64,000 bases of DNA from Cyclobacteriaceae bacterium (GCA_965267245.1 OZ253939.1:5840962-5904961), one strand, 5' to 3'; counted from the first letter of the stretch, positions 11,961 through 53,022 are shown. The notes: generated by a model not told the origin, from the letters alone. Numbers and translations: made by a program.

Positions 11961-12035
11961 GGTCCCTTCGTCTAGGGGTTAGGACGCCAGGTTTTCATCC
12001 TGGAAACAGGGGTTCGATTCCCCTAGGGACTGCCA
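11961..12035 (+). tRNA. tRNA-Glu (anticodon UUC), CCA encoded
   Basis: GGUCCCU-UC-GUCU-AGGGGUUA-GGAC-G-CCAGG-UUUUCAU-CCUGG-AAAC-AGGGG-UUCGAUU-CCCCU-AGGGACU-G-CCA. The layout matches E. coli tRNA-Glu. The acceptor stem has a G1-U72 wobble, and its last 5 nt lie inside the att core. Confidence 0.9.
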
Positions 12036-13569
12036 AAGGCGAATAAACCAGCTTTTCAAGTGTTGAAGGGCTGGTTTTTTTATTGTTTCCTACTGATAAT
12101 GAGTTAATTAGGACAAAAATCGAATTTATTCTTGGGGTTCGATATTCCTGTTTTTTGTTGTCATACTGTAGACCCTCTGGGAAGACTAAGTTTTGAAGTC
12201 TTCTTTGATCCTGTAATATTGCTTCTTTCCACGTATAGGCCAATTTAGTAGTGAATTTCATGCAGTGAGAAACGAATTTAGAGGGGTTCGATATCTCAAG
12301 TTGTTTCTTCAATTGGTTATTCATCTGGCTTATGTTTAATTGGGTTATTTCTTTGTGTTTTTTATATGTAATGGAATCAATCTCTCCATTTATAAATTTT
12401 TCCTCAATTCGATTTAGAAATGAAGTTTTCTCAGAAAGCTGTTTTTTAATCAATGTTCGTGATTCCAGTGCATCTTTTTGCATGTTACTGAACACATATT
12501 CCGCTTCCTTTTTAAAAAGAGCTACATCATTCGGATCAATACAAAGCGATGAGAGTAACTCATAGAAACTTTCATGAAGCTTCAATCCAGAAATTGAGGA
12601 TGTGCAACTGCATCTATAGTACACAGGCTGACTTTTCTTTATTCGATATGATCCATCTGATTTCTGTTTCCTTTTCACAACGTAAGCCGTGTAGAGGTTT
12701 CCGCAATTGGGGCATGACAGGAATTGTTTAAGTGGAAATAGGTTTTCTTGTTTACCCTGTTTTTTGTTGCCTGATAGTACTTCTTGAACAAGGTGCCATG
12801 TATGACTATCTACAACGGCAGTGTGCTTGCCTGGAGCCGTCTCGGAACCAAGCAGCTTATGTGATATAATTCCTTTGTAAAAGGTATTTCTAAGTACTTT
12901 ACTAAGTGCCTTAAATGTTATATTCACTCCCCTTACATTTAAAAAGACTTGTGCCTCTTTAATAGTGTATTCACTATGTGCTATTTTATGAAAAGCTTGG
13001 CCAATAAGATCTCCTTCTTTGTTAACTGATACAATGCCTGTGTTTTTATCCTTCCAGTAACCACGTGGTAGCCTGCCACCACACCAATTACCATTTTTTA
13101 GTGATTGGGTCATGCCTCGTTTTACTTTGATTGCTCTCCACTTGTTATCTACTGCCGGTAGGGAAATGTAGTTGGCTCTCATGAAAAGTGACTCAGGTAC
13201 TTCATAGTTTAATAGCTGGTCAATCGCTTGTAGTTCAATTTCCCACTCATCCAACTGAGATATACTAACATAAGCTTGTACATCATTCCTACTAAACCGA
13301 GAGTAGTCTATTATCAACACATAAGAAATAGATTCATACACAGACCGTAAATAATTCATTAATTCAGTCCATCCAGGCCTTTTAAAATCCTTTGCGGAAT
13401 GATCATCCTTGAACTCATGATCTATTATTATGCCCATTTGCTTGCAGAAAAACCTCATTTGTTCCTTTTGAGAATCTATGCTGTATTTCTGTCTGTATGC
13501 ATCATCTGTTGATTTTCGATAATAGCAAACGGCTCTTTTGTTTTTAAAGGTTGATTGATCTAGGTACAT
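11995..13569 (-). CDS. Large serine recombinase (integrase of element 1)
   Basis: Resolvase-type N-terminus AVCYYRKSTDD...SIDSQ (catalytic Ser), a recombinase domain, and a zinc ribbon CPNCGN...YYRCSC. The last 15 or so codons cross the att core and end inside tRNA-Glu. Confidence 0.9.
   Translation of the reverse strand: MYLDQSTFKNKRAVCYYRKSTDDAYRQKYSIDSQKEQMRFFCKQMGIIIDHEFKDDHSAKDFKRPGWTELMNYLRSVYESISYVLIIDYSRFSRNDVQAYVSISQLDEWEIELQAIDQLLNYEVPESLFMRANYISLPAVDNKWRAIKVKRGMTQSLKNGNWCGGRLPRGYWKDKNTGIVSVNKEGDLIGQAFHKIAHSEYTIKEAQVFLNVRGVNITFKALSKVLRNTFYKGIISHKLLGSETAPGKHTAVVDSHTWHLVQEVLSGNKKQGKQENLFPLKQFLSCPNCGNLYTAYVVKRKQKSDGSYRIKKSQPVYYRCSCTSSISGLKLHESFYELLSSLCIDPNDVALFKKEAEYVFSNMQKDALESRTLIKKQLSEKTSFLNRIEEKFINGEIDSITYKKHKEITQLNISQMNNQLKKQLEISNPSKFVSHCMKFTTKLAYTWKEAILQDQRRLQNLVFPEGLQYDNKKQEYRTPRINSIFVLINSLSVGNNKKTSPSTLEKLVYSPLAVPRGIEPLFPG
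12027..12038. repeat. att core copy 1 (GGACTGCCAAAG): junction of tRNA-Glu and element 1
   Basis: Exact 12-mer repeated at 51509-51520. It covers tRNA positions 68-76 plus AAG. Confidence 0.6.
12046..12083 (+). terminator. Element-borne intrinsic terminator for tRNA-Glu
   Basis: 12-bp stem AACCAGCTTTTC/GAAGGGCTGGTT (two G-U pairs) with a 7-nt loop, followed by TTTTTTTATT. It lies on the strand opposite the recombinase coding sequence, and there is no other + strand gene here. Confidence 0.65.
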
Positions 13570-13574
13570 AAATT

Positions 13575-13817
13575 TTAATATTTAATTTTCCAAGTAACCT
13601 GATTTGTATACCTGCTAGTTTGAATTAAACTCCAAGGAAACCAATCTAATATACGCTTTGAAACTGAACATTTATCGACAATATTTCCACTTTTATCAAC
13701 CGCAAATAGGGTATAATCCAATATTGAAGAATGAATTATTTTGGTCAATATGATCGAGTCTTTGCCATATATTTCAATGAAATTTAGTACTTCAGGCTTT
13801 GTACTTAATCCACCCAT
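13575..13817 (-). CDS. Hypothetical small protein next to the integrase (positional candidate for a directionality factor)
   Basis: 80-aa ORF packed between neighbouring genes. No recognisable motif. Confidence 0.4.
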   Translation of the reverse strand: MGGLSTKPEVLNFIEIYGKDSIILTKIIHSSILDYTLFAVDKSGNIVDKCSVSKRILDWFPWSLIQTSRYTNQVTWKIKY

Positions 13818-14278
13818 ATCTTAATTTTTGTTTCAGGGTTTCCAAAAACGATTTCCATTTCGCCTTCACTATAGTTTATCGCAGAAACATTTTGTCCAAT
13901 TACTTGATAATTAACTTTTAACCCTTCCCAATTGATATTCCCTGCAATATTGGGAATATCTTTTTTATGAGCCATGGAATTAAAGTCTACGTAATTCACC
14001 TTTTTTTTTGGTGAAAATGCTTCAGGAGTTATGTTTGGATGATAAGAAAACTCATGAAGATGTCTAAGAGGTTGAACTCCATACTTCCAATAGACTTTAA
14101 TTCTAATAAACCTGTCTTCAGTTTCAAGCAATTGTACTAGGTATTCTAAATTAGGCAAAGGAGTTTCCTTAAAGACAATTTTTTCTGAATTAGCCCAAAC
14201 CTCAAGAAACAAAGTCCTTCCTTTCTCTTGCTGAGCCTCAATGAAACTAATTGCTTCTTGTAGACTTCTATGCATCAT
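13805..14278 (-). CDS. Hypothetical protein; its N-terminal domain is paralogous to 36593-37417
   Basis: RSLQEAISFIEAQQEKGRTLFLEVW...FIRIKVYWKYGVQPLRHLHEFSYH aligns with LQDAIQFIDQQQSEKERDIFLDVW...FVRIRVYWKYGSQPFRHLQEFSFH. Confidence 0.6.
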   Translation of the reverse strand: MMHRSLQEAISFIEAQQEKGRTLFLEVWANSEKIVFKETPLPNLEYLVQLLETEDRFIRIKVYWKYGVQPLRHLHEFSYHPNITPEAFSPKKKVNYVDFNSMAHKKDIPNIAGNINWEGLKVNYQVIGQNVSAINYSEGEMEIVFGNPETKIKIWVD

Positions 14279-14383
14279 CCCCTTTTAGATTTGTCCTGCA
14301 ATCTTATAAAATCATTGTACAGAATTTCTGCTAATTTTCGAAACGCTTTCCTTTTTTCAACATCATTCATGCTAAGTTTTGGT

Positions 14384-15058
14384 TTATGTGTGGTTCTTTG
14401 ATTTGCATATTCCCTTGTGAGCGTTTAGGCTTTTCATGGAATGAAATACCTCCTGGCAATGAGGGCATGTATGCTGGTGTACTAGTTGCTCAATCTTCTT
14501 ATACTTCTGCTCAAGGCTGGTCAAGTTATGCTTAAGACTGCTCAACTCATGCTTTTTGGTGCTTATCGCTTGCTCAATGTTGGTCAATAGCTGCTCCCCT
14601 TTGGTGATTCGATGTAGTTCTTTAAATAAGTGTGCAAAGCCATAATCCATAGAGGAAAGCATGATGCAACAAAACCACCGAAATTGAGTGTCCTGGATAC
14701 TCTTACCTTCCCAGGGCTTCCAAAAGAAGTAATTTATTATGAACGCAAAAAGAACAAGTAATAATTTCGACCAGTGAATCTCTTTACCTTTTATGTTAAT
14801 TGGAGCCATTTTACTGCTATTTACCATAAATATCAGTGTGGTGCTTACGGCTACAATTGCGATTAATACTGAAGCCAGATATCTACTGTTTGCATTTTTA
14901 ATCATAGTTAATGATTCTGCAAAAAGACTCTGTACTTCGTAGTATCTATATCCCATAAAAGCAAAAAACACTGGTAGCAGAAAGGCCAGACTAACTAAAA
15001 AGTCTGATATTCTTTCTGCTATTTTGTCCAATGAAAATTCGTCTATCTTTAATTTCAC
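14384..15058 (-). CDS. Multi-pass membrane protein with C-terminal coiled coil and a C2HC zinc-finger-like motif
   Basis: About 4 hydrophobic helices, then a coiled coil, then CPHCQEVFHSMKSLNAHKGIC. The stop overlaps the start of... actually its start overlaps the stop of the upstream GH108 gene by 4 nt, a holin-like position. Confidence 0.55.
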   Translation of the reverse strand: MKLKIDEFSLDKIAERISDFLVSLAFLLPVFFAFMGYRYYEVQSLFAESLTMIKNANSRYLASVLIAIVAVSTTLIFMVNSSKMAPINIKGKEIHWSKLLLVLFAFIINYFFWKPWEGKSIQDTQFRWFCCIMLSSMDYGFAHLFKELHRITKGEQLLTNIEQAISTKKHELSSLKHNLTSLEQKYKKIEQLVHQHTCPHCQEVFHSMKSLNAHKGICKSKNHT

Positions 15059-15570
15059 CTGTTGTGTGAGATTTGGACACGATCAAACCAACCGATATAC
15101 TTTTCAAAAACTTCTTTTTTCTCCATTAGGGATATATAATGGTATCCCTGAAGAATGTTCATTACCTTAAGAAGAAGCTTTTTTAATTTACAGGCATTGT
15201 ACGCATTAAGTGTTATAGTGCCTATTGAGCCATCAACTGTAATGTTGTCATAATCTATTTGATTCTTGTTACAGAGATTCAGAGCTTGCTGGAATATCTC
15301 TGAACCCTTTCTAATTCCAACATTTACAGAAGTGTCAAATAATTCTATTGCAATATCTTCCTCCAGATCCTCGCAAAATAGTTTAGTCCAAAAATCCCTG
15401 TGATAAATACTTTGTGCATCAGCAAGGGTGATATTTTTGATGTCAATTTTAGGGTAGGATCTTTTACTTATTCCAAACTTTGTTTCCCCTCCTGGATCAT
15501 CTGGATCATTCACATAGCCACCTTCATGGCCGATTGTTAGCTTAAATGCTTTTTTGAATTTTTCAGTCAT
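15055..15570 (-). CDS. GH108-family muramidase (endolysin-type) with PG_binding_3-like C-terminal part
   Basis: GHEGGYVNDPDDPGGETKFGIS is the GH108 catalytic signature. Confidence 0.85.
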   Translation of the reverse strand: MTEKFKKAFKLTIGHEGGYVNDPDDPGGETKFGISKRSYPKIDIKNITLADAQSIYHRDFWTKLFCEDLEEDIAIELFDTSVNVGIRKGSEIFQQALNLCNKNQIDYDNITVDGSIGTITLNAYNACKLKKLLLKVMNILQGYHYISLMEKKEVFEKYIGWFDRVQISHNR

Positions 15571-15605
15571 TTTTACTTGTAATTTTGGTTTGTTAATAAA
15601 CTGGT

Positions 15606-15971
15606 CTATTTCTGGTAAGTGCCAACTACATCACGTTTGATTCGATCAATTTGCCTTTGTCTTAGCCATCCCAAAGCTTCTTCAAGCTTAGTTATGACTA
15701 GAGATCCCTCTCTGCTTGGAACAAGTGAGTTTTTGTACTTCAAATCATGGATCATCATCGCTAATAGATGTTCATGAAGGGTGCCTCTTTTCTTTTCCAC
15801 TTCTTCTTTACCCAGTTTGGATCCACGGACAAATCTGATTTCTACTGGACGTGGTACCATGTGGATTCGAGTCAAAGCCAAACCTTGTCCATCAATTATT
15901 TCATACTCGGGAAGTCGGTACCTGGTACCTTCCTCAATTACTTCGAATTCTTCTTTAAGATCTAATATCAT
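15606..15971 (-). CDS. Hypothetical phage protein
   Basis: 121-aa ORF with normal composition. The C-terminal LEEALGWLRQRQIDRIKRDVVGT looks like a conserved helical motif, but I cannot name the family. Confidence 0.55.
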   Translation of the reverse strand: MILDLKEEFEVIEEGTRYRLPEYEIIDGQGLALTRIHMVPRPVEIRFVRGSKLGKEEVEKKRGTLHEHLLAMMIHDLKYKNSLVPSREGSLVITKLEEALGWLRQRQIDRIKRDVVGTYQK

Positions 15972-15982
15972 TGATTTATTAT

Positions 15983-16144
15983 TTAGTAATTACTCATTTT
16001 CTTATATGGCCGTGTGGTTTTCTTGTCACAGAAAGAACATTTTACTTCCCTTGATTTCGGACGCTCTTTAGTCTCAAGCTCGTATTTCCTTTCCCTCGCA
16101 TATAGAGGCGAAAGGTCGAAACATTCTTTACACATAAATCGCAT
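15983..16144 (-). CDS. Small zinc-ribbon protein (53 aa)
   Basis: Below the ORF-track cutoff. Hand translation gives MRFMCKECFDLSPLYARERKYELETKERPKSREVKCSFCDKKTTRPYKKMSNY (CxxC...CxxC). Its start overlaps the upstream stop as TAATG. Confidence 0.45.
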   Translation of the reverse strand: MRFMCKECFDLSPLYARERKYELETKERPKSREVKCSFCDKKTTRPYKKMSNY

Positions 16145-16323
16145 TACTGGCATATTATTGATCGGATTACTTGGTTATCAAATAATTTCCAAAACCGTCT
16201 ATTGACGGCAGTGTGCATTCGTCTTTTTAGATCATCATAGATATGTCTACCACAGTGAATGCAGATGCGGTATACTGGATGATATTTGTGATTACAGTAA
16301 GTATCAAGACTTAATATTTTCAT
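16144..16323 (-). CDS. Small Cys/His-rich protein (59 aa)
   Basis: Hand translation gives MKILSLDTYCNHKYHPVYRICIHCGRHIYDDLKRRMHTAVNRRFWKLFDNQVIRSIICQ. Its start lies in a copy of the junction 12-mer CGATCCAAAATG. Confidence 0.4.
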   Translation of the reverse strand: MKILSLDTYCNHKYHPVYRICIHCGRHIYDDLKRRMHTAVNRRFWKLFDNQVIRSIICQ

Positions 16324-16337
16324 TTTGGATCGTTTCG

Positions 16338-17489
16338 TTAAACATTAATTTTCAGCCTACTGGCAATCGCTTTGACTACATCAACAGTCACTGCATTGCC
16401 AAGTAGTTTATACCTTTGTGTCCGGCTAATTTCCTTTATGTCTCCACCATAATCACCGCACTTAGTCCAGTCGTCAGGGAATCCCTGAAGGCGTTCACAT
16501 TCTATTTCTGTCAGCTGCCTAATTCTAACATCATCCTCTGTTTCAATTTGAATAACTGGCTGGCCACTTCCATCTGTTCTACCTCTTGATGGGATAGTTG
16601 GGGATTCACCATTATTCATTTCTCGAAAACCTTTCCCATCTTCATGTGTCCTCCATGTTCCTATTTTGGTTACAACTCCTAATTTGCCTCCTGTATCAAT
16701 AGTGTGAGATTGTTGCTTTGTTACCCGGCCTCTACCAGTGCTATTCTCTACTAAATGATCAAAACGAACACCATCACCTACAGTGGCCAATTCATACCCG
16801 GCTTTAGTGTTACTCGTAACCTTTATATAGTTGTCATCTACTGACATTTTAGCCATTCGTTGATTTAAGGCACTTGCATTTCTATTGGATTGAACTTGAA
16901 TCCTGCTCCCTCTTTTCTTTTCTTCTCTGTATGTTTGATCAACCATGAAATCATCTTCTTTGAAAGGAAATACACCTGGCTCACTTTTTCCTGCAAGATG
17001 TCCGACAAGGTAGATTCTCTCTCTATTTTGGGGTAGAAACCAGTTTGTATTAAGCAGTTGCCATTCAAGTCTATAACCCCCAATGTTGGCAAAGGCAGAG
17101 AGAATTGCCCAAAAGTCTGCGCCATCGTTTGAGGTGAATGCTCCTTTAACATTTTCCCAGATAAAAACACTCGGTCGGCATTCCCTAATGATTCTAATTG
17201 CTTGGAGGATAAGAACACTTCTTTCCCCACCCATTCCAAGTTTCTTTCCTGCCAGGCTAAAGTCTTGGCAAGGGCTTCCGAAAGTGATAATGGTTGGGGT
17301 AAATCCTTTTCCTGAAAAATCGACAACTGATCCGACATATTCTGCTCCTTTAAAATTGTATCTATAATTAGCGATCGCATGTTTATTAATCTCACTGAAA
17401 TAATGGGCCCGAACCTTAACACCAGAATCAATTATTCCTTTTGCAAAGCCTCCAATTCCTGAAAACAACTCCAATAATTCAATTTCCAT
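16338..17489 (-). CDS. DNA (cytosine-5)-methyltransferase, orphan
   Basis: The C5-MTase motifs appear in order: I ELFSGIGGF, IV GSPCQDFS, VI IWENVKG, VIII QNRERIYLVG, X LGNAVTV. No adjacent endonuclease gene. Confidence 0.92.
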   Translation of the reverse strand: MEIELLELFSGIGGFAKGIIDSGVKVRAHYFSEINKHAIANYRYNFKGAEYVGSVVDFSGKGFTPTIITFGSPCQDFSLAGKKLGMGGERSVLILQAIRIIRECRPSVFIWENVKGAFTSNDGADFWAILSAFANIGGYRLEWQLLNTNWFLPQNRERIYLVGHLAGKSEPGVFPFKEDDFMVDQTYREEKKRGSRIQVQSNRNASALNQRMAKMSVDDNYIKVTSNTKAGYELATVGDGVRFDHLVENSTGRGRVTKQQSHTIDTGGKLGVVTKIGTWRTHEDGKGFREMNNGESPTIPSRGRTDGSGQPVIQIETEDDVRIRQLTEIECERLQGFPDDWTKCGDYGGDIKEISRTQRYKLLGNAVTVDVVKAIASRLKINV

Positions 17490-17499
17490 TTCGAATCGA

Positions 17500-18361: not shown

Positions 18362-18372
18362 TTTTGATTCGT

Positions 18373-18785: not shown

Positions 18786-19115
18786 CTATCCATTTCTATC
18801 GGTTTCGGAGACTTCCGCCTCTAGCTTAAATCTGTACCTTTTATTTATCCAGTTTTTAACTTGTGTATCTACTGGCAGTTGATGAACATAAGGCATTTCT
18901 GAATGGCATCTAAACCATTCTTCCCATTCATCCTCATCATCCATATCTGGCTCACTTGAACATTCAGAAGTAATACTGTCAGCCATCCATTGACCATTAT
19001 TATCTTCCACCCACCCCTCAACAGTGTAGGTTAGTTTGCATTTGCAGTAAGGGCAAGCATTATTAAATTCAAATTCCTTATGCTCATCAACTAATTCAAA
19101 TTCTAGTTTGCTCAT
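18786..19115 (-). CDS. Hypothetical acidic Cys-containing protein
   Basis: 109-aa ORF with CPYCKC...C...C.H. Its start lies in the junction 12-mer. Confidence 0.5.
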   Translation of the reverse strand: MSKLEFELVDEHKEFEFNNACPYCKCKLTYTVEGWVEDNNGQWMADSITSECSSEPDMDDEDEWEEWFRCHSEMPYVHQLPVDTQVKNWINKRYRFKLEAEVSETDRNG

Positions 19116-19312
19116 TTTGGATCGATTTTAGACTTGTACCTTTTGATTAATTCACACAGAATCATATCTGTGTCTGTGATCATGGGAGGAACACACATTG
19201 TTAAGCTTTTACCTCCTGTTTTACAAAGCTTGTGTACTTCCTTTTCGGCCAGTTCGATTAACTGTGAATCTGGCATAGCTGCTTGTTTGGCTTCAAATTC
19301 TTCTGTTGTCAT
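19112..19312 (-). CDS. Hypothetical small protein ending in DPK
   Basis: 66-aa ORF with ATGA stop/start overlap at both ends. Confidence 0.5.
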   Translation of the reverse strand: MTTEEFEAKQAAMPDSQLIELAEKEVHKLCKTGGKSLTMCVPPMITDTDMILCELIKRYKSKIDPK

Positions 19313-19557
19313 TTTGGATCGTTTTGATATTCATCCAGTATTGCCCTCAGAGTGCTGTTAGAGTGTAATTCAATGGGATCTATTTCTACAATCTCATTGA
19401 CTAACCTTTCGAGCATATAATTAACCTTAGAAAGTTCTTCTAGTGCAAGTTCAATAATCTCACATCTGGAGTCCTCACCGTATTGTTCCGGTGGAAGCAA
19501 TTGAATTAAGTAGCGCATTGCATCTTCCTTCAAATCATTTAGTTCGTCTGCTTTCAT
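19309..19557 (-). CDS. Hypothetical small acidic protein ending in DPK
   Basis: 82-aa ORF with ATGA overlaps at both ends. Confidence 0.5.
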   Translation of the reverse strand: MKADELNDLKEDAMRYLIQLLPPEQYGEDSRCEIIELALEELSKVNYMLERLVNEIVEIDPIELHSNSTLRAILDEYQNDPK

Positions 19558-19772
19558 TTTGGATCGGTTTTTAATCCTTTCTTAATTAGTTGATCCCAAT
19601 GCTCTTCATGTTCTTCAATATTATGAAACATTGATACCTTGTATTCAATCTTTTTAGTCTTCTTAATCAAACCAAACAGATATTTCTTAAGAACAGTTAG
19701 TTCATAAATTGTCTGATATTCTCCATCTCCAAAGCAATGAACAAACTGGTATTTGTATGAGAGTAAATACAT
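19554..19772 (-). CDS. Hypothetical small protein ending in DPK
   Basis: 72-aa ORF with an ATGA overlap to the downstream gene. Confidence 0.45.
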   Translation of the reverse strand: MYLLSYKYQFVHCFGDGEYQTIYELTVLKKYLFGLIKKTKKIEYKVSMFHNIEEHEEHWDQLIKKGLKTDPK

Positions 19773-19787
19773 AAGTTATTGATCGTA

Positions 19788-26063: not shown

Positions 26064-26242
26064 AAAGCTTTGTCATTATTCCTGGACCATGAAGGCCTTT
26101 TGTGTTTTGTAGATAAGACGTATTTCTCCTCAAATTCCGGGCAATAGCTACGTGCAGGAACAATAACCACCCAACCGGTCAAAGTTTTCCCAGACATCTC
26201 ATCATACCAGGTACATTTTGTTTCTAATGGAATTTTATTCAT
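26018..26242 (-). CDS. Hypothetical small protein
   Basis: 74-aa ORF that overlaps the TPR gene stop by 8 nt. Confidence 0.5.
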   Translation of the reverse strand: MNKIPLETKCTWYDEMSGKTLTGWVVIVPARSYCPEFEEKYVLSTKHKRPSWSRNNDKAFWKIVPASKLEICPN

Positions 26243-27449
26243 TCTGTTTCAATGATCTAATCATTCTATTTCTCACCCGTACAAATCTGATAATTGATCT
26301 AAATAGAAGGTACAATATAATTAATAACCCAATACCTACTCCTAGAAGGACAATATTCTGGTTTTCAATGATGTCATTCAGTTGATGAGTTTCCTGCTCC
26401 TGTTTGTAAACCAGAGCAATGTTAGCAGCTTGCGCCATAAACAGTAGTTCACGGGAAGTATTAGCAAAGGCCTCAAGTTCAGATTCGTACTTTTCTATGT
26501 AGGCAGTTCTGTTAATATCATCATTTAATGCATGATAGTTACGGTGCATCAGCTTATAAAGATCTAATGTATGGTTATCCTTATCCACGTGATCAAAAAG
26601 ATCTTTTGCGTTGCTGTATGCAATAGCCGCTTCCTCGTACTTACCTAAATGATGGAGGCATGTGCCCAGATCCTTATAGGAAATAAATTTTTCAGTACCT
26701 GTTTTTATTTCCAGCGCTTTATTGAGGTTTTCTACAGCTTTCTCATAGTCTTCTTCCATCATGTAGCTATGAGCGATATTGTGCCATGCTTTTCCTGCGT
26801 ATTTCTCATATTTAGGGACACTAGTCTGATTGATAATTTCAAAAAAGTACTCTTCTCTAGCCTCTGCATAGAGGCCAGTTTCTACAAGTATAAAGCCTAG
26901 TTTATTGTAAATTTTAGCTTGTCTGGTAAGTTGCTCTTCATCCTTTGCCAGGGCTAGTGCTTCAAAAAAGATTTTGGAGGCTTTCTCAAGTTGTTCCATG
27001 GCTTTATAGTTATTGCCAATGTTATATAATAGTCCTGGTTTATCTTCATCTACAACATACTGAAGCGCATTATTGTAAAAAGTCTCTGCCAGGTCATAAT
27101 TGTTATGAATTTTGAAAATCCTTCCTAAGCACCAGTACAAACGTGACCTTGCCTGATCATAATAGCTGCCCTCCGGGATAAGTTCGAGCGCTTTAAAATA
27201 GTGCTTTACCGATAATTGATAATTTCGTTTAGTGTTGTAAGCATCAGCAATGAGGAAATGACTAAAATAGGCATTATGATTATCCGAATACTCTTTCAGG
27301 GAGCTTTCAGCATAGAAAATTGCGGAATCAGGAGAATTAAAATGCTGTTTAGCTATTTCGTTGCTCGGACTATTAATAGAGTAATTCTCATTGACAGTGG
27401 AGCAGGCATGGAAAAGAATAACAGTTAATATGAACAGAAAGTAGCGCAT
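26235..27449 (-). CDS. TPR-repeat lipoprotein with a C-terminal TM anchor and a short basic tail
   Basis: Signal plus lipobox MRYFLFILTVILFHAC, multiple TPR units (A..Y...AL), then IVLLGVGIGLLIILYLLF and RSIIRFVRVRNRMIRSLKQNE. It is a paralogue of 58014-59246. Confidence 0.8.
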   Translation of the reverse strand: MRYFLFILTVILFHACSTVNENYSINSPSNEIAKQHFNSPDSAIFYAESSLKEYSDNHNAYFSHFLIADAYNTKRNYQLSVKHYFKALELIPEGSYYDQARSRLYWCLGRIFKIHNNYDLAETFYNNALQYVVDEDKPGLLYNIGNNYKAMEQLEKASKIFFEALALAKDEEQLTRQAKIYNKLGFILVETGLYAEAREEYFFEIINQTSVPKYEKYAGKAWHNIAHSYMMEEDYEKAVENLNKALEIKTGTEKFISYKDLGTCLHHLGKYEEAAIAYSNAKDLFDHVDKDNHTLDLYKLMHRNYHALNDDINRTAYIEKYESELEAFANTSRELLFMAQAANIALVYKQEQETHQLNDIIENQNIVLLGVGIGLLIILYLLFRSIIRFVRVRNRMIRSLKQNE

Positions 27450-40248: not shown

Positions 40249-43200
40249 TTAAATTACGATAGTCGTATTCTTCGATTTTTTTGATTTAGTTTTTTTCCTT
40301 TTTGGGCCATTCATAGGAGCCGGTGACGGGTTAGGTCTAACTGGAGCTGGTTGGTGATAAACAGGCTGTGTACTTCCTTTCTTGCTGCTTACAGCATAGA
40401 TTAAACCACCTACTGCAACAACACCTATTCCCGCCATTATCAATTCTTTTTGAGTAAGTCCACCAATTTCTAGTTGCTTAACAGATTGGCTACTGATTAC
40501 TTCCGGTTGTAAGACTTTAGCATCCTGGATATCTGAATTTGTGGCAGCTGGTATTGCTTTCTGTGGTGGAGTAGGAAGGGTATTGTTCATTACTTCCCTT
40601 GTTATGTTTTCCTTTACAACTGGAGGTGCAGGAACTGTTACTGATAATTTTGTAAGATGTGGTTTTCCTGCTTGGTCCGCGTACTTATTTGCATAATTTG
40701 CGTATGTGTTTGCTCGAATTGCATCATTCTTGGCCTTGTACATATCATACTTTTGCTTGTATGAATTATAGCGACTTAACGCAAGGCTAGATGCTGAAGA
40801 ACTGCTTGAGCTAGTTTTCTTTGTGACTGAACTAGTTATTTTATTAACTGCTTTATTCAGAAGCGGTTTATCCTTGGTTAGATCACTCAGTTTATTTCCT
40901 ACCGCTTTAACCAGGTTATTTTTTGTGTCTTCCTTGTCATTGCCAATGTTTTGAACAATCCCGTTAACTATTGGATTTTCACTTAAGCCTTTCAGAAGGT
41001 CTACAATTTTCACTATAAATGGAGCGGCCGCAGCGGTTGCTGCTGCTGCTGTTGCTGGTTCTCCCATACCTACTAGGTATTCAGCTTCCTCTATCCCTCT
41101 CAGTGCGGTTCTTGCACGTGAAGCAATTGGAATATTAATTGAAGACGTTTTACTTGTAGTTGGTCTAACATAGGAAGAAGTTTTCTTTGAAGGAGTTGGT
41201 TTTTTTGAACTCGTGGTTTGAGGTGGTCTTCCTCCAGTAACAATCGGTCTGCTGGTAGCTCCAATTACAGACTTTAAGTTTGCATCCAGCTTTGGTTGAC
41301 CGGCCCTATCAGCGTATTGATTTGCAAGTGAGGCATATCTATTAGCCGCTGTATAACTTTTGGCGTTTTTGTATGTAATATATCGTGACTTATAGTTGTT
41401 GTAGGATTTAAGTGCCGCCTCTCTGTCTCTACTGGAAACGGTAGAAGAGGAAGTTGTACTGGAGGTAGTTCGTGGACCTTTAGTCAATGATCTTGGATCT
41501 GTTACAGTAGTTATTAGAGGTAGCTTTGGTTGCCCTGCTTTTTCTGCATATCTATTTGCGTACTCTACATACCTGTTTGCAAGAGTCTTATTTCCTTTAA
41601 TTTCATATGTTTTGGCTGAGGCTTTGTATCTAGTGTAAAGTTTTAATGCATTTGGGTCTACCTTTTGAGCGGCCTTAGCTTTCATTTTAGCGATCTCTGC
41701 CGGATCTTTTGAGCCCGAATTACCAGGATTGAAAATTGTTCTGGTTGGAATTGGGCTAGTATTAGAAGAAGTTGTAGTTGACAATTTAGGTTGACCTGCT
41801 AAAGCTGCATACTTATTGGCAGCATTGACAGCTGCTATAAATTGACTTCTAAGTCTTCCATTACCTCTATACTTATCAGCTAAATCCTTGTACTTTTTGT
41901 ACTGAGCCAAATATTGTTGCTGCTTAGGATCATTTCTTTTAATCGAAGATGCAGATCCCCTGGAAGTGTTGTAAGAAACATTCCTGATTTGATCCGTTGA
42001 TTTTACTTTTGGAACATTTGACTTTGAAGAAGATGGTGGATTCATTACATACTTGAAATCAATGAACCAGCTTTTATCTCCGATTACCTTTTTCGCTCCG
42101 TCTGAAACTGCTTCCGCAAATTTCTTTGGATCTCCACCTATGGTTTTAAAAATCTTCTCGACCTTATCATAGCTGTCCTTTCTTTTTTTCCAATCATTCA
42201 GATCTATTTTTGCATTTTGTGCCTGTTGTTGTGAATATCGACCAGGCCAAATAGCAGCAGCTTTCTTTTTACCCAGGACTCGAAACCACACTTTAATTCC
42301 TTCCCTGGCTAGTAAAGTAGCGGGAAAGACTTTTTTAACCCCTTGAGCAACCTTACCAGCTACTTTCTTAACGCCATTAAATACTTTTTTGAAAATACCA
42401 TCTCCACCTAGACCTAAACTGCCAAATTCTTCGTCAACGATGAGAAGAGCTATAACATATTCCCTTTTATCAGGATCATCCCAGGATTCAATCAAGAGAT
42501 CAACTTTTGAAATGAAATCTTCAGGAGATTCACCATTAGGAACTTGCTCAACTCCATTAATGATGTTGGCTCGTAATTCTACCCAACCATTTTTTGTGTC
42601 TAAGGCATATTCAGTGATACCTTGCATTGTACCACAGTCACAGGTAATTCCATTCATGGCAGTAATATTTTTAGGGTTTACAATCACCTCATCATAGTAT
42701 TTTGGGAGATTGTTTTTGGGATATTCAAAGTCAAATTTGTCAAGTACGGGATCAATCACATAGTAATTGTCTCTGGTTGATAAGTTTGCTCCATCGCTTT
42801 TTGGAACAACTATGTAAACATGGCTATAATCTCCAGTGGCACTTTTACTAATCTTTCGTATAGAAAAAGGAATACCGAAGTTGTAGAGTATTGCGCCTGT
42901 CAGGAAAGCCATATCATCACAATCAATTCCGCTTTTTCTGAGAGCGTAGCTTGCAGAAACACCCTTTACCTGTTCTCGGTTTTTAGGATCCTGCTTATAT
43001 TGGAAATTGTTGTATATGTGATTGAAGATATTTCTAGCAAAAATCTCTCGATTTGCTGAATATAGTTTTTTTGCAATTTTGGCTGCTTCTTTGTGATCCT
43101 GCTGGATTTTCTCAACCATCAAGTTAAGCGTATCATAGCTCGTGCCAAGAGTTATTGTAGTTTCTTTGGGTTTTCTGGACGGGTAGTAACTATCAAATTG

Positions 43201-43290
43201 GTTTCCAGTGTTAATTTCTCTCGCACCAGAAGCAACTACACCGAGACCATTCATATAGGTTATTGGATATCGTGATAATACTCTGGTCAT
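40249..43290 (-). CDS. 1013-aa protein: N-terminal transglutaminase-like cysteine protease core, four Tyr/Lys-rich repeats of about 50 aa, and a C-terminal TM anchor
   Basis: GIDCDDMAFLTGAILYNFGIPFSIRKI...YSHVYIVV...YYVIDPV gives a Cys-His-Asp triad pattern. The repeats end in AGQPKL or AGKPHL. The TM helix is IMAGIGVVAVGGLIYAV, followed by a Pro-rich basic tail. Confidence 0.7.
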   Translation of the reverse strand: MTRVLSRYPITYMNGLGVVASGAREINTGNQFDSYYPSRKPKETTITLGTSYDTLNLMVEKIQQDHKEAAKIAKKLYSANREIFARNIFNHIYNNFQYKQDPKNREQVKGVSASYALRKSGIDCDDMAFLTGAILYNFGIPFSIRKISKSATGDYSHVYIVVPKSDGANLSTRDNYYVIDPVLDKFDFEYPKNNLPKYYDEVIVNPKNITAMNGITCDCGTMQGITEYALDTKNGWVELRANIINGVEQVPNGESPEDFISKVDLLIESWDDPDKREYVIALLIVDEEFGSLGLGGDGIFKKVFNGVKKVAGKVAQGVKKVFPATLLAREGIKVWFRVLGKKKAAAIWPGRYSQQQAQNAKIDLNDWKKRKDSYDKVEKIFKTIGGDPKKFAEAVSDGAKKVIGDKSWFIDFKYVMNPPSSSKSNVPKVKSTDQIRNVSYNTSRGSASSIKRNDPKQQQYLAQYKKYKDLADKYRGNGRLRSQFIAAVNAANKYAALAGQPKLSTTTSSNTSPIPTRTIFNPGNSGSKDPAEIAKMKAKAAQKVDPNALKLYTRYKASAKTYEIKGNKTLANRYVEYANRYAEKAGQPKLPLITTVTDPRSLTKGPRTTSSTTSSSTVSSRDREAALKSYNNYKSRYITYKNAKSYTAANRYASLANQYADRAGQPKLDANLKSVIGATSRPIVTGGRPPQTTSSKKPTPSKKTSSYVRPTTSKTSSINIPIASRARTALRGIEEAEYLVGMGEPATAAAATAAAAPFIVKIVDLLKGLSENPIVNGIVQNIGNDKEDTKNNLVKAVGNKLSDLTKDKPLLNKAVNKITSSVTKKTSSSSSSASSLALSRYNSYKQKYDMYKAKNDAIRANTYANYANKYADQAGKPHLTKLSVTVPAPPVVKENITREVMNNTLPTPPQKAIPAATNSDIQDAKVLQPEVISSQSVKQLEIGGLTQKELIMAGIGVVAVGGLIYAVSSKKGSTQPVYHQPAPVRPNPSPAPMNGPKRKKTKSKKSKNTTIVI

Positions 43291-45773: not shown

Positions 45774-45783
45774 TGGTGTGTGG

Positions 45784-46335: not shown

Positions 46336-46336
46336 T

Positions 46337-47023: not shown

Positions 47024-47047
47024 TCTTTAGTTTTTTGTGGTGTGTGG

Positions 47048-47900: not shown

Positions 47901-47940
47901 ATTTTTTTGTTTTTAGTCTTTCCAAAAGCAAAAATCCAAG

Positions 47941-48097: not shown

Positions 48098-48101
48098 GTT
48101 G

Positions 48102-51100
48102 TTAAAATGGTAAATCATCGTTATCACTATCGTTTGAGGGTGATGGAGGAACAATTTCGGGTTCAGAAGTAGGTGGATAGGTGGAATTCTTAGCAGCATT
48201 TAAGTTAATTCCCAACTCAGAGGACTTGAAGATGAATGCTCCATACTTTTTTCCTCCAATGGATTCTGAATCAACTCTACCAACATAATATCCCCTACTT
48301 TTCACATAGCTTGTAAGTGAGGTGAAGTTGATTGGGTTATCTCCCTCAGTCTTTTTTTCCTTCGCATATAGTTTCTGTACCTCAGTTAACCTTAAGAACA
48401 GAAGTTCAGTTGGTTCCATCAGATCCAGGTAACCATCACTGGTTTCAGGGGAATTAACTCTTACTTTATTTTTAGTTTGAATTTTGAAGTGAAGTTCATT
48501 CCTGATTTTTCCTGCATCAAACAGGTTTTGAACGGTCATCCAGAAGTCACGAAGAATATCTGATTGAGAAATTGTATCTGTTAATTCTATAATTTCATTT
48601 TCTGCCCAGGTTTTAAAATCCTCATGACTCCAGGGAAACTGAAATTCAGTATCAAAAATTTTGTTCATTGCGACTAAGGCACAATAATTCCTCAATACAC
48701 GTTCATCATACTGCTTCTTTCTGGATCTGATGTTAGCAGAAATTATTTTAAAAGATTCAATAAAAGCAGATAAGTAATTTTTTTCGACATGACCTCTTGA
48801 TGGAAGTAATTCGGTTAACACTCCACCAAGTCCCTTTTTCTCCAATGTCTTTAATTCCTGGTAAGCTTTTATTTTTTCTTCAGTACGTTCATTGTTACTT
48901 GCAAAAACACTTACAATTGACCTGGAAACAACTGAATTATCATCTTTTGTACTCAGATATTGACCCTGAAGAATCATCGTGCAGTTTACCTTTTGTGTAT
49001 TACTTCGTGTTTTTGTTCCGCCTCTTCCTAACCTTTCCCTTCCTTCACCATCAAAAGCAGTCTTAATTGCCTGAAATCTCTCTTCTTTGACAGAGTTGTC
49101 ATCAAACTCATTGAAGATCATAGGGCAGTTCTTGTATCTTTCGAGAGAGGCGGCAAAAGCTGCATCTGTACCACTCGGAAGTGAGAAGGGTTGGAGTTCC
49201 TTAAAGAAGACAGCTGCTACACTTTCGGCAAATTTAGATTTACCAGATCCTTTTGGACCATAGCCATATAAATGAGGACAATTGTTATCTACTTTGAATA
49301 CAATGTCCCTGAAAAGACTTATTAACACATACGAAACAGCAGCATACGCATGTCTGCCATACACAGTCTGCATTCGAGCAGCCCAATTGTTAAAATCAAT
49401 AGGAGGATTACTGTATGTCAAGTACCTATCTTTTTCATGTAAATCGTTATCCTGGCGAACGTCTTTAAATATTTTACTGCTAGCAGGAGAGAAGTAATGT
49501 TTATTCTCGACCTCAACTAATCCAGCTTCATTGTAATTAATAATTCCCTGGTCTATGACATACACGCAATTGTAGTAAGCAAAGAATCCTTCATTTTGCC
49601 AACCGAGGTTTTTTAATTCCCATCCTTTTGGGAATTCATACATTTGGTCCATTATTATCTTATCGAGATCCTGTTTAGACCCATTGAAATAATATGCCCC
49701 TCTCGCAAAGAGATGATTTCGGAATTTTTCGGTAGATATTAATGAATCACTTGGAACCTCAATAATTTCTCCCTCATCGTAGATTCCATTTTCAAGTTTA
49801 ATGATCCTGCTATTATCTTCAGGATCAAACTTGTGTAGTATAGGAGTGAAGATGAAATTGGAAACTTTGTAGAAACCTGAATAATCTTTTTTTAGAATGT
49901 AATAACCTGTTTGATCACCATCTACCTTACCAAAGTATTGTTTATGATTGATCTCTTCCAGGTCAGCTTCCTCTGGTAAATCATCATCACCTTCAAACTT
50001 GTATGATTTATACTTGCTAGCTATTCGACGTTGTGTCTGCTTCTCCTTTAACTTTTCTTCTCTAGTTTTAAGTGACTTAGCCCGTAGTTTCAGTTCCTTT
50101 TGAATCTGAGTTCTGTAGTCCTCCTGGATCTCTGTGTCGGGAATTAACATTATTAACGATACTATTTGATCCATGGCATCCGCACGATCATATGCATCAG
50201 TACATTTATCGTAGATCTGTTTAGCCAGGTAAACAATAGCATCTTTTGAATTATCAATAATCCATTCAGCAATGTTTTCACCTACTTCTTGGCATAACTC
50301 GTCTGGATCTTGATTTTTTGGTAGAGGACAGACTTTTACATTCAACCCGTATTTAGATAGTACTTCTGTATCCTTTCTAACAGCTTTCATCCCAGCGGCA
50401 TCACCATCACGCATTAAGTATATGGTTCTTGCGTACTTATTGAGCAGCTTGGCCTGTGAATCTGTTAATGCCGTCCCCATGCTACAAACCGTATTTGATA
50501 ATGCGTTGGAATGCATGCTGATAACATCAGTATAACCTTCAACTAGAATAGCAGATCTCTCAAGTATTTTCTCTCCTTTATGTTTTACACCATTTACAAT
50601 TGAGCGCTTTGCCTGGTTTAAACCATATAGAACATGACGTTTGTTGAATAGTAAGCTTTCTTTTGAGTTAAGATACTTTGGTACCTGATCTTTTTTAAAT
50701 GCTCTGCCAGAAAATGCAACCAGCAGACCATTATGATCATAAATTGGAAAAATTATTCTATCCTGGAAAAAATCATAATAGTTTCCGTTTTTGGTACTAA
50801 GTAGTCCGCATTCAACACAATCGAGGGCTATTCCTTTTTCTCGGGCAAGATCGTAGATGAACTTATTGTCATCGGCAGCTAGTCCTAATCCCCATTCACT
50901 AATAATTTCCTTATCAAAACGATTGATTTGATCCCAGTACTCTTTTGATGAATTAGGTTCATCAGAATCCATTACCTTCAGAAGCGTTTCACTGTATTTA
51001 TTTAAAGCCGCTCTGTGTAGTGTGCTGAAATAGTGTGATTTTTCTGCTTTGGACTTTTCTTCAGGTGTCAGATCCTCTTCTTCAATTTCAATATTATATT

Positions 51101-51365
51101 TTTTGGCCAGGTACCTAAGAGCCTCTGGATAATTTAATTTTTCATGCTCAATCAAAAACGTAACTACGTCCCCACCTTTTCCGCTACTGAAGCATTTAAA
51201 TATCTGTTTGCTAGGTACAACATAGAAAGAAGCAGTCTTCTCATTTGTCCAGGGACTTTTTGCACTGTAGCTATTTCCCGACTTTTTTAATTCAACGAAA
51301 TCAGATACTACATCTGTTATTTCTGACTCTCGATATATTTTATCAATAATATGTGGTGCAATCAT
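48102..51365 (-). CDS. Primase-helicase (DnaG-like ZBD remnant, TOPRIM, C-terminal D5/P4-type SF3 helicase)
   Basis: NEKTASFYVV...FKCFSSGKGGDVVTFL (DnaG zinc-binding-domain layout with ligands replaced), TOPRIM ILVEGYTDVISMH...DGDAAG, and Walker A GYGPKGSGKSKF. Confidence 0.88.
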   Translation of the reverse strand: MIAPHIIDKIYRESEITDVVSDFVELKKSGNSYSAKSPWTNEKTASFYVVPSKQIFKCFSSGKGGDVVTFLIEHEKLNYPEALRYLAKKYNIEIEEEDLTPEEKSKAEKSHYFSTLHRAALNKYSETLLKVMDSDEPNSSKEYWDQINRFDKEIISEWGLGLAADDNKFIYDLAREKGIALDCVECGLLSTKNGNYYDFFQDRIIFPIYDHNGLLVAFSGRAFKKDQVPKYLNSKESLLFNKRHVLYGLNQAKRSIVNGVKHKGEKILERSAILVEGYTDVISMHSNALSNTVCSMGTALTDSQAKLLNKYARTIYLMRDGDAAGMKAVRKDTEVLSKYGLNVKVCPLPKNQDPDELCQEVGENIAEWIIDNSKDAIVYLAKQIYDKCTDAYDRADAMDQIVSLIMLIPDTEIQEDYRTQIQKELKLRAKSLKTREEKLKEKQTQRRIASKYKSYKFEGDDDLPEEADLEEINHKQYFGKVDGDQTGYYILKKDYSGFYKVSNFIFTPILHKFDPEDNSRIIKLENGIYDEGEIIEVPSDSLISTEKFRNHLFARGAYYFNGSKQDLDKIIMDQMYEFPKGWELKNLGWQNEGFFAYYNCVYVIDQGIINYNEAGLVEVENKHYFSPASSKIFKDVRQDNDLHEKDRYLTYSNPPIDFNNWAARMQTVYGRHAYAAVSYVLISLFRDIVFKVDNNCPHLYGYGPKGSGKSKFAESVAAVFFKELQPFSLPSGTDAAFAASLERYKNCPMIFNEFDDNSVKEERFQAIKTAFDGEGRERLGRGGTKTRSNTQKVNCTMILQGQYLSTKDDNSVVSRSIVSVFASNNERTEEKIKAYQELKTLEKKGLGGVLTELLPSRGHVEKNYLSAFIESFKIISANIRSRKKQYDERVLRNYCALVAMNKIFDTEFQFPWSHEDFKTWAENEIIELTDTISQSDILRDFWMTVQNLFDAGKIRNELHFKIQTKNKVRVNSPETSDGYLDLMEPTELLFLRLTEVQKLYAKEKKTEGDNPINFTSLTSYVKSRGYYVGRVDSESIGGKKYGAFIFKSSELGINLNAAKNSTYPPTSEPEIVPPSPSNDSDNDDLPF

Positions 51366-51501
51366 CTAAATTATCTCATTCAAAATCCTCAAAAAAATGG
51401 TGTGTGGTGGTTTAAATAAGGTTTCTTATGAGTAATTGAAGAGATCTTCTTCCTTTTCTAATTTGATAAAATCTTCAATATAAATGGGGTTCGATTTGTG
51501 G

Positions 51502-53022
51502 TCAGTACGGACTGCCAAAGACTAACAAGCCACCACTTTCGGTGGCTTTTTTACTTATATGGCGTGTATAGGCCAATATTGGGTTTATTTGATGGGTTCG
51601 ATATTGGCTATTTTTCTTATCGTAAGTAAATCCCTGTGGAAACACTATTTTCTGAATGACTTGTCTATGTGAAAACGTGGCTGATTGCCATAGATCAGCT
51701 ATTTCTGAGGTAAATCTGATAGCGTAATTGACGAACTTTGATGGGTTTGATTTTTTTATTCTGATAGTCTCCAGTTCCTTCTCAATTTCTACTCTTTCAC
51801 TCATCAGATTTGACTGATGGGAAGTATAAGTTTCTTCCCCTAATCCGGAGTATATAAATTTATCTTCTAATACTTTCAATTTGGAATTGATCTTACCAAT
51901 CTGCTGCCTCAGGATTGAAGCCCTCTTTATGTCTTCTGTTGCTAACCTGGTGAATGTTTCTGATAATATTGATTCAAATGCAGGTACCAGTTCAATATCC
52001 AGTGAAAGCTCGTTTAGCAATTCCAAAAATCCGGCATGAGCTTTATTTGCGGAAATATTCTCTTTGCAGCCTTTACCATTGCACTTGTAATATGCGATAG
52101 GGTTCTTCTTAATGTAATACTTATCCTGGTCCCAGATAGATTGCTTCTTCTTCACAAAGTATCCTGTCAATGGTCTATTACATTTTGAGCACTCCAATGA
52201 TCTCTTTAGAGGGAATGAATCTTCTGTGTCTACAATATTTATGGACTCATTCCCAGAAAGAATCTCCTGTACCTTTAGAAATAATTCATTACTTACAATT
52301 GCTGGGTGAGTTCCTTTTACCGGTTTATCTATCATGGAAGTGGCTACCCATCCTGCATAAATTGGGTTTCTCAATCTTTTGGACCATGTCTGTACACTGT
52401 CCTTTATTCCCAGTGTGCTCATTTTGTTCCTGATGTCAGTAATGCCATTGCGCATAGATGCCATTTTAAAGGCTCGTTCAATATGGTAGCCTTCTGGTGT
52501 GATAGACACCTTGCCAGTGTTTTTATCTTTTAGGTAACCAATAGGGAAGGGGAAGATCCAAATTCCCTGGTTTAGTTTTGATTTCATTCCAGCTGTAACT
52601 ACCAATGATCTGCGATCATTATCTACTTCTGGCATAGCCAGGTAAAAAGCCAGCATCATCTTCTGCTCAGGTATTGAAGGATCTATAGGTTGTTCAATAG
52701 CCTGAACCTGTATTCCGAGTTTGCGGAGGGTTTTGATCATGTGGAATGATTCTTCCATGTTACGGCTGAATCTATCCCACCGGTGTACTAATAGAGTGTC
52801 TATCTGCTTACTGTATTTTTTACAGTAAGCTAACAGCCTAGTAAACTCAGGGCGCTTAAACGTTTTTGCACTATAATCTTCCTGAAATAGTCTATCTATT
52901 GTAATCCTGTTTATATCACAATATTGCCTAAGTCTAGTCTCCTGATGTGGTAGACTTGTGCCTCTTTCAGCTTGATCATCTGTGCTTACGCGTGTGTATA
53001 GTATGGCCCTGGTTAATCTCAT
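51502..53022 (-). CDS. Large serine recombinase (integrase of element 2)
   Basis: From the ATG at 53020-53022: MRLTRAILYTRVSTDDQ (catalytic Ser), a recombinase domain and a zinc ribbon CSKCNR...YYKCNGKGC. The last 6 codons cross the att core. Confidence 0.9.
   Translation of the reverse strand: MRLTRAILYTRVSTDDQAERGTSLPHQETRLRQYCDINRITIDRLFQEDYSAKTFKRPEFTRLLAYCKKYSKQIDTLLVHRWDRFSRNMEESFHMIKTLRKLGIQVQAIEQPIDPSIPEQKMMLAFYLAMPEVDNDRRSLVVTAGMKSKLNQGIWIFPFPIGYLKDKNTGKVSITPEGYHIERAFKMASMRNGITDIRNKMSTLGIKDSVQTWSKRLRNPIYAGWVATSMIDKPVKGTHPAIVSNELFLKVQEILSGNESINIVDTEDSFPLKRSLECSKCNRPLTGYFVKKKQSIWDQDKYYIKKNPIAYYKCNGKGCKENISANKAHAGFLELLNELSLDIELVPAFESILSETFTRLATEDIKRASILRQQIGKINSKLKVLEDKFIYSGLGEETYTSHQSNLMSERVEIEKELETIRIKKSNPSKFVNYAIRFTSEIADLWQSATFSHRQVIQKIVFPQGFTYDKKNSQYRTHQINPILAYTRHISKKATESGGLLVFGSPY
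51509..51520. repeat. att core copy 2 (GGACTGCCAAAG): junction of element 1 and element 2
   Basis: Exact repeat of 12027-12038. It is preceded by GGGGTTCGATT (51486-51496), which matches the tRNA-Glu T-arm. Confidence 0.6.
51527..51552 (+). terminator. Second element-borne + strand terminator directly after the att core
   Basis: AAGCCACC-actttc-GGTGGCTT followed by TTTT. It sits in the same position relative to the core as 12046-12083. Confidence 0.6.

Follow-up and report, generated by a model that had tools for sequence, protein, structure and literature searches.

Large serine integrases such as those of Listeria A118/LI, phiC31, Bxb1, TP901-1 and SPbeta start with a resolvase catalytic domain, continue with a recombinase domain and then have a zinc ribbon of four cysteines that is interrupted by a long coiled coil. 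They act on short, roughly symmetric attachment (att) sites in which the distal motif is nearer to the centre by 5 bp in attB, the bacterial site, than in attP, the phage site. These enzymes make a 2-bp staggered cut, recombine in one direction unless a directionality factor is present, and are regarded as needing short simple sites and that separate factor. The 3′ ends of transfer RNA (tRNA) and transfer-messenger RNA (tmRNA) genes are the targets of islands with tyrosine integrases, in which the element brings a replacement 3′ end, tandem arrays occur, and the integrase (int) gene adjoins and converges on the tRNA gene (Williams, 2002; Islander). According to one review, tyrosine integrases use gene ends including tRNA genes, whereas site-specific serine recombinases disrupt the protein genes into which they insert (PMC5704250), and the word tRNA is absent from the serine-integrase survey of Durrant et al. 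(PMC10083194). The subject of this analysis is a stretch of 64,000 nucleotides from a Cyclobacteriaceae bacterium (GCA_965267245.1 OZ253939.1:5840962-5904961), called the window below and numbered from its first nucleotide. With a probability of about 0.8, it contains two adjoining temperate elements, E1 and E2, at the 3′ end of a tRNA-Glu(UUC) gene, each inserted by its own serine integrase (Int1 and Int2, respectively) of a tRNA-targeting clade. Target, replacement 3′ end, tandem arrangement and converging int gene are shared with the tyrosine-integrase islands; in contrast, the enzyme family is unrelated and the identity block is just 12 bp.

An attP that lies inside the integrase gene of an element with a tRNA target is known from tyrosine recombinases, namely intP/intX of the Myxococcus phage Mx8 and the SSV1-type archaeal integrases, in which integration rewrites (Mx8) or splits (SSV1) the integrase frame. 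Int1 has in common with them an attP in the int frame that alters the product, but this is a functional resemblance and not membership, as the enzyme family differs. In addition, a large C-terminal part is exchanged in Mx8, whereas about 27 residues, located after a disordered linker, are exchanged here. In the integration-dependent immunity of mycobacteriophages, attP is reportedly located in the repressor gene, and recombination by a tyrosine integrase is said to remove a degradation tag; the change of a C-terminus is common to both cases, but no degradation tag is evident in Int1. Int1 and Int2 share the order of resolvase and recombinase domains and the att-site plan of the phage serine integrases, and probably also the zinc ribbon. 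They differ from them in sequence (no integrase more than about 25% identical in deposited phage genomes, no close relatives in viral contigs, and a match in the PDB to the catalytic domain only), in targeting and rebuilding a tRNA or tmRNA 3′ end, in having attP in the int frame, and in carrying copies of the att motif within int.

The target gene, tRNA-Glu(UUC) (anticodon ttc), is located at 11961–12035 on the plus strand (ARAGORN) and follows the same GAPDH–tRNA-Glu synteny as in a related bacterium (locus L018). The core repeat GGACTGCCAAAG occupies 12027–12038 on the plus strand, where it comprises the end of the acceptor stem, the discriminator base, CCA and AAG, and recurs on the same strand at 51509–51520 as a tRNA 3′-end fragment without a tRNA body. 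The second copy lies outside any tRNA gene, because ARAGORN calls none there. An exact search of the window confirmed the 12-bp core at these two places and nowhere else, and with up to one mismatch only 0.2 chance matches are expected, so that it is not a frequent chance repeat; the similarity extends over 27 nt at 81% identity (12024–12050 versus 51506–51532; repeat family D5). The cores are 39,482 bp apart and delimit E1, a prophage of about 39.5 kb (body 12039–51508, extent 12028–51509) with genes nearly all on the minus strand. The visible part of E2 extends from 51521 to 64000 and runs past the window end. That 12027–64000 is instead a single composite island with two recombinase genes, and the repeat a chance occurrence or an internal scar, would suit a repeat of just 12 bp and the position of the far end of E2 beyond the window. 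This is very improbable given that there are two copies only, against the expectation above, that both coincide exactly with the 3′ terminus of an integrase gene, and that relatives have the ends of an E1-type element joined (L014) or an E2-type element alone at the tRNA gene (L018).

In its prophage (attL) form, Int1 is a 524-residue protein encoded at 11995–13569 on the minus strand, with the C-terminus SPLAVPRGIEPLFPG and a stop inside tRNA-Glu. Int2 (51502–53022, minus strand; 506 residues from MRLTRAILY) ends in VFGSPY, 5 nt beyond the core, and an identical protein is on record (P0121). Int1 and Int2 share 35% identity across about 490 residues (E 2e-93), and the similarity ends about 30 residues (Int1) and 15 residues (Int2) short of the stops; the core is read in different frames by the two genes. 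Both proteins contain the resolvase domain PF00239 (E 4e-16 for Int1, 1e-28 for Int2) and the recombinase domain PF07508 (E 5.6e-5 and 1.4e-9, respectively, both over the Pfam cut-off), and neither matches the tyrosine-recombinase (phage integrase) families of Pfam, matches being confined to serine-recombinase families. Catalytic Arg18 and Ser20, as well as four cysteines (C286, C289, C320 and C322), are invariant in an alignment of 26 sequences, and in an AlphaFold2 model of the homologue P0011 strands are followed by long helices at 338–441. The preliminary description of this DNA had proposed two homologous but diverged minus-strand large serine recombinases, one just inside each core copy and each reading across it, and this holds in every part.

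Int1 and Int2 fall within a large clade of Bacteroidota integrases that is specialised in tRNA and tmRNA genes, of which it uses the 3′ ends. In 18 of the 22 homologue loci that could be evaluated (genomes, metagenomes and L018), the 3′ end of int meets a tRNA or tmRNA gene in antisense orientation. The targets are the genes for tRNA-Glu (4), tRNA-Phe (3), tRNA-Met (2), tRNA-Leu (1), tRNA-Arg-cct (2), tRNA-Arg-tct (2), tRNA-His (1), tRNA-Lys (1) and tmRNA (2), with seven amino-acid types represented among the tRNAs, and the int frame enters the RNA gene by 6–131 nt in 15 of the 18. The two tmRNA genes (L022, 4532–4936; L007, 7523–7830), of which one was confirmed by Rfam, are hit at the 3′ end and the int frame runs 77–131 nt into them. 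Many homologues of Int1 end in RGIEPLFPG, GLEPTTL, GFEPRT or similar, which is the translation of an antisense tRNA T arm. A hydrophobic residue followed by Glu-Pro is present within the last 45 residues of 146 of 233 homologues, compared with 0–22 for internal windows of 45 residues, apart from a single window (77) over a conserved internal site. At E<1e-30, Int2 has matches in more than 2,000 protein clusters, and all named sources of the family are Bacteroidota. A search with a strict attP DNA pattern gave no match in metagenomes and a single doubtful one among viral contigs (L020, which lies at the end of its contig and is not clearly an int). The pair of serine recombinases at a tRNA site had been called unusual; measured against the literature it is, but within the protein family it is the norm, so that the finding is wider than had been proposed. 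At L005 7480–7602 (identical in L037), a tRNA-like 3′ half (TGGAGAATATCGGAGTCGAACCGACGACC...) follows int and is called as a gene by neither ARAGORN nor Rfam; possible identities are an unusual tRNA and an attP in which the tRNA-like arm is long.

Seven sites in attP form were read: that of E1 (reconstructed), those of L014, L015, L016 and L017, the Int2-like L019 and the distant L009. In the int direction, the shared plan consists of an A-run and hairpin, which form the antisense terminator, GGTTTATTCGC (present in Int1-like sites), the tRNA 3′ end (TGG, one base and AGTCC in sites of the tRNA-Glu type), a 14-nt spacer, TC(G/T)AACC(CC) and a tail. The distance from the tRNA 3′ end to the start of TCGAA (or TCTAA) is 23 nt in six of the seven attP sites and 18 nt in the tRNA. 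In left half-sites, the predicted crossover is therefore separated from the conserved T-arm box GGTTCGA by exactly 5 bp more in attP than in the tRNA gene. The crossover is placed at GG 12027–12028, a prediction from symmetry alone; no directionality factor was identified. Around this centre, positions 19–22 are occupied symmetrically by a left GGTT and a right AACC, and the 11-nt box GGGGTTCGATT then spans positions 9–19 in the tRNA and 14–24 in the E1 P arm. As the GG forms the left edge of the identity block, a crossover there fits, with the remaining identity needed only for rebuilding the tRNA end. The attL of E1 (12009–12051) accordingly has the T arm and acceptor stem of the tRNA as its B arm, followed by the predicted crossover and the P′ arm, and its attR, which doubles as the E2 left junction (51486–51533), consists of the E1 P arm, the crossover and the E2 left end. 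The shift of the box matches the published zinc-ribbon motif rule of serine integrases: in the Listeria integrase, the motif lies at 16–24 in attP and at 11–19 in attB, a 5-bp shift (Rutherford et al.; PMC3783163).

The tRNA-like box of the P arm might be a leftover tRNA copy, as in the attP of tyrosine integrases, and not a serine-integrase motif. Fragments of tRNA are usual in elements with tRNA genes as targets, and GGGGTTCGATT is identical in the tRNA and the P arm. This alternative is nonetheless unlikely, for six of seven independent attP sites have the box exactly 5 bp off its place in the tRNA, the DNA between box and core is unlike tRNA, and the 14–24 versus 9–19 geometry agrees with the solved Listeria system. 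In addition, the box of L014–L017 reads TCTAACCCC, which is impossible as a T loop because C56 of tRNA is invariant under the standard rule. The geometry favours the view that the family reads the near-universal tRNA box G52/G53-T54-T55-C56-R57-A58, and such a mode of recognition would explain the spread over many tRNA species.

Each core is followed by a plus-strand hairpin and T-run, as had been pointed out in the preliminary description, and the folding energies bear this out. The terminator that E1 supplies to the tRNA gene (12045–12084) has a folding energy of −20.3 kcal/mol (z −4.8) for the hairpin and T-run at 12045–12077, and that on the left end of E2 (51527–51554) one of −13.5 kcal/mol (z −5.2) for 51527–51548. 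The 3′ end of tRNA-Glu from about 12028 onward is likewise supplied by E1: the gene is called intact by ARAGORN, with the fragment carried by attP restoring it, and the same is the case at nine other loci. A terminator hairpin antisense to int directly after the tRNA 3′ end is found in nine homologue loci, which are all the cases examined. The proposal that each element provides a replacement tRNA 3′ end and terminator is therefore well founded. Read antisense, the E1 terminator encodes the ...KKTSPSTLEKLVYS... linker of Int1. The sequence of this linker (NKKTS...LVYSP) is dictated by DNA functions because the frame runs through the terminator, then the P′ arm and finally the core.

Since attP lies inside the int frame, the excised form of Int1 has a C-terminal motif that is replaced by antisense-tRNA codons upon integration. 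Joining 12039 to 51508 by computation yields ...SPLAVRTDHKSNPIYIEDFIKLEKEEDLFNYS with a stop at 51426–51428, in exact agreement with the earlier hand translation of the excised circle. The coding segment of the excised-form tail occupies 51426–51508 on the minus strand and reads RTDHKSNPIYIEDFIKLEKEEDLFNYS up to the stop, so that the attP form ends in ...IEDFIKLEKEEDLFNYS and the prophage form in ...PRGIEPLFPG. Comparison of attP-form and prophage-form reading frames thus confirms the proposed dependence of the integrase C-terminus on the junction. In the excised form, the P arm is read as S-N-P, followed by (Y/F/V)IED(F/I)(I/L). In the AlphaFold2 model of the attP-form protein P0011, the fold is confident to about residue 488, residues 487–514 have a predicted local distance difference test (pLDDT) score below 50, and a terminal helix at 516–534 scores 55–71.

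Whether these tails matter to the enzyme must be weighed against simple read-through to the first available stop, which would leave the integrase the same in both states. The similarity of Int1 and Int2 ends 15–30 residues ahead of the stops, the prophage-form tails mirror whichever tRNA was hit, the linker is predicted to be disordered, and in both integrated states the Int2 tail has just a few residues, all of which meaningless read-through would produce. It would not produce the conservation of the attP form. (Y/F/V)IED(F/I)(I/L) is kept among five phages while the I-E-D codons differ synonymously only (ATT/ATA, GAA/GAG, GAT/GAC), and looser acidic-hydrophobic versions of the motif are present in the distant attP forms P0122, P0124, P0137 and L009. 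Moreover, the frame stays open for 27–41 codons beyond the core in six of six attP forms, at a stop probability of about 0.07 per codon. Read-through is a serious alternative, rated at somewhat less than even odds. Because the motif codons vary synonymously and the frame stays open, the excised-form tail appears to be a real, selected protein feature that integration removes. The chances that the attP-form and prophage-form integrases differ in function are about even, and it is doubtful that the swap helps to set the direction of recombination.

The T-arm box is also found within the int genes. GGGGTTCGAT occurs four times in the window, always on the plus strand (0.03 expected): at 12009 in the tRNA, at 51486 in the P arm, and twice inside int1, at 12134–12143 and 12283–12292, where it encodes Y-R-T-P and S-N-P, respectively, in different frames. 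int2 contains GGGTTCGATA at 51594–51603 (plus strand; codons Y-R-T-H) and a weaker copy, GGGTTTGAT, at 51743–51751. Among the homologue loci with Arg at this Y/F/C-R-T site, 15 of 15 use CGA for it, even where the proteins are just 25% identical, and have T as the last base of the codon before, giving TCGAAC(C/T). CGA makes up 15% of Arg codons in these int genes, and its use is 1/33, 7/33 and 7/29 at three positions where the catalytic domain has an invariant Arg. In L014–L017, all three copies (S-N-P, Y-L-T-P and the P arm) read TCTAACCCC, with G changed to T; the change is synonymous at one site and replaces Arg by Leu at another, and it may be common by descent. The copies are held by selection on the DNA itself, because CGA is fixed in 15 of 15 loci against 15% usage and the copies changed together. 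They may act as accessory integrase-binding sites or as sites regulating int; we know of no accessory sites for large serine integrases. A helical phasing of the boxes (spacings of 125, 130 and 149 bp) was considered and dropped as over-reading.

The anatomy, the tRNA association of the family, the 5-bp shift, the attP-form relatives and the conservation of the tail are direct observations. On the mechanism proposed here, in which the crossover position, the pairing of domain and motif, the order of arrival and the effect of the tail change are the conjectural parts, E1 would have been inserted by Int1 and E2 by Int2. The zinc-ribbon domain would read the T-arm box GGTTCGA as the distal half-site motif, at 9–19 in attB and 14–24 in attP, and strands would be exchanged at or beside GG 12027–12028. 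The P′ arm of the element would deliver a fresh tRNA 3′ end and terminator, by which the tRNA gene stays intact. The enzyme expressed from the excised circle would have a disordered, att-encoded linker followed by a conserved helix with (Y/F/V)IED(F/I)(I/L), and in the prophage enzyme this terminal helix would be swapped for a few antisense-tRNA codons. In this way the recombination state would write the enzyme. It is a tentative idea, to which we give a low probability, that this and the boxes inside int together form an inherent control over the direction of recombination or over int expression; to our knowledge, neither a state-dependent C-terminus nor int-internal sites have been described for large serine integrases.

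Relatives of E1 exist in attP form, as the gene order of L014 is the product of joining 12039 to 51508. This 40.8-kb metagenomic contig contains, in one direction, int (P0009, 45% identical to Int1), a gene for 114 residues and a gene for a 1056-residue primase with 46% identity to the E1 primase along the whole protein. The latter is a primase-type replication protein of 1087 residues (48102–51365, minus strand) with N-terminal DnaG primase domains (Pfam), and its gene is the first after int in the excised circle. With this joined relative known, the earlier view of E1 as an excisable prophage is supported by comparative evidence that lies outside the window. E1 also contains genes for an endolysin (15055–15570), a DNA methyltransferase (16338–17489) and an anti-restriction/ATPase protein. 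An open reading frame (ORF) of 1013 residues (40249–43290) has internal repeats: a 38-nt unit occurs in four diverged copies, 234–633 nt apart, at 40655–41820, which indicates that the product is internally repetitive and possibly tape-measure-like; the protein has no match in PHROGs. A further repeat, CATTTTGGATCG, is present in four exact copies (0.5 expected) at 16321–16332, 19113–19124, 19310–19321 and 19555–19566, each overlapping the start codon of a minus-strand E1 gene, where that strand reads ...CGATCCAAAATG; a set of E1 genes thus seems to have a leader or start-site signal in common.

The visible part of E2 encodes, after Int2, a DUF3987 helicase (53614–54999; Pfam), a DnaB-N-like protein (54996–55706), a lysozyme-like protein (56776–57219), a repressor-like protein (57586–58017, plus strand), a TPR protein (58014–59321), an ion channel (59696–60448, plus strand; Pfam Ion_trans, E 8e-30) and a 792-residue ORF (60925–63303). 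An Int2-type element stands alone at GAPDH–tRNA-Glu in L018, the GAPDH of which is 74% identical to that of the window; its integrase is 41% identical to Int2 and ends in ...FGSP before the stop, which is the end that Int2 would read without E1. The gene order of E2 is that of this element, as read in L039 (large ORFs, TPR gene, small gene on the opposite strand, small genes, DUF3987 gene, int). E2 might be a small phage satellite, of the phage-inducible chromosomal island (PICI) or P4 kind, that uses the att site of E1 as its helper, and its tandem position with a prophage, DUF3987 helicase or primase-type gene, repressor and own integrase would suit such a satellite. Its size (more than 12.5 kb, with no right end within the window) and its lysozyme-like gene speak against this, as does its collinearity with the element in L018 and L039, which extends for more than 18 kb from int without reaching a right end. 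L039 has a 606-residue ORF homologous to the 792-residue ORF at the same relative place (E 5e-24) and more large ORFs (502–625 residues) more than 18 kb from int. A satellite origin thus has little probability, and we regard E2 as a second prophage-like element. As E2 takes up all that remains of the window, it is expected, and does not count against stacking, that repeat and pattern searches of these 64 kb gave no third core copy; they gave no E2 P arm either. Of the tandem as first described, both elements and the left junction of E2 are upheld, and the far end of E2 lies beyond the window.

The ion-channel gene and an ORF of 153 residues (together 59696–60909, plus strand) stand between the TPR/repressor module of E2 and the 792-residue ORF, and look like cargo of E2. 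A TPR protein of about 425–435 residues is found beside a small opposite-strand gene in E2 (58014–59321), L014 (397–2073) and L039 (6585–8299); the small gene is repressor-like or helix-turn-helix-like where scored (E2 and L014), and the two genes may be a shared lysogeny-control module. A 404-residue protein of E1 (26235–27449) belongs to the same PHROG family (phrog_5208) as the TPR protein of E2. L039 and L018 contain a tandem duplication of about 800 bp with two DnaJ-domain genes and a loose resemblance to a P arm in each copy; these look-alikes (L039 14479 and 15283, corresponding to L018 5731 and 6535) are without a tRNA 3′ end and were rejected as P arms.

Several points weigh against two serine-integrase elements stacked at one tRNA gene. 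The canonical rule is that attL and attR are not substrates, and under this rule the entry of a second element into an occupied site is unexplained: attB of a serine integrase spans both sides of the crossover and is therefore destroyed by the first insertion. The second arrival would have used either the tRNA arm and the resident P′ arm, or the resident P arm and the native B′ arm. E1 and E2 have P′ arms that resemble each other (GCGAATAAACCA versus ACTAACAAGCCA), both mimicking a tRNA end followed by a terminator, and this likeness may permit re-use of the site. The right end of E2 is outside the window, and the native B′ arm is outside the sequence compared; the right junction would be expected as a box of the GGGTTCGA type (GGGTT(C/T)GA), about 14 nt, and then GGACTGCC with the native tRNA trailer (B′ arm). 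Furthermore, the P′ arm matches the T-arm box partly only (GGTT and a few bases), and the L014 attP has a distance of 24 nt, its spacer being 1 nt longer than in the other sites. The zinc-ribbon family PF13408 scores 19.2 bits for Int1, below the cut-off of 25.3, and does not match Int2. The evidence is that of sequences, no excision or integration product of this strain having been observed, and a same-species empty site is absent from the loci compared.

Full-text literature searches found no description of this clade; the 2020 TIGER paper was outside them, and a prior database listing, which would also detract from novelty, is possible. Two papers on Riemerella tRNA islands were considered as precedents and set aside, as they concern tyrosine integrases. 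Relative to the literature searched, what is new is a clade of serine integrases on tRNA and tmRNA genes, a job that has been assigned to tyrosine integrases.

A clade of more than 2,000 protein clusters thus carries out the tyrosine-integrase task by a different chemistry, and it appears to have spread across tRNA species by means of a box that nearly all tRNAs share. This makes the question of why tRNA genes are favoured integration sites a testable one. The enzymes are compact and their target motif is partly universal, which may be of use in genome engineering. Finally, the rewritten C-terminus and the boxes inside int point to a layer of control that would be new for large serine integrases.

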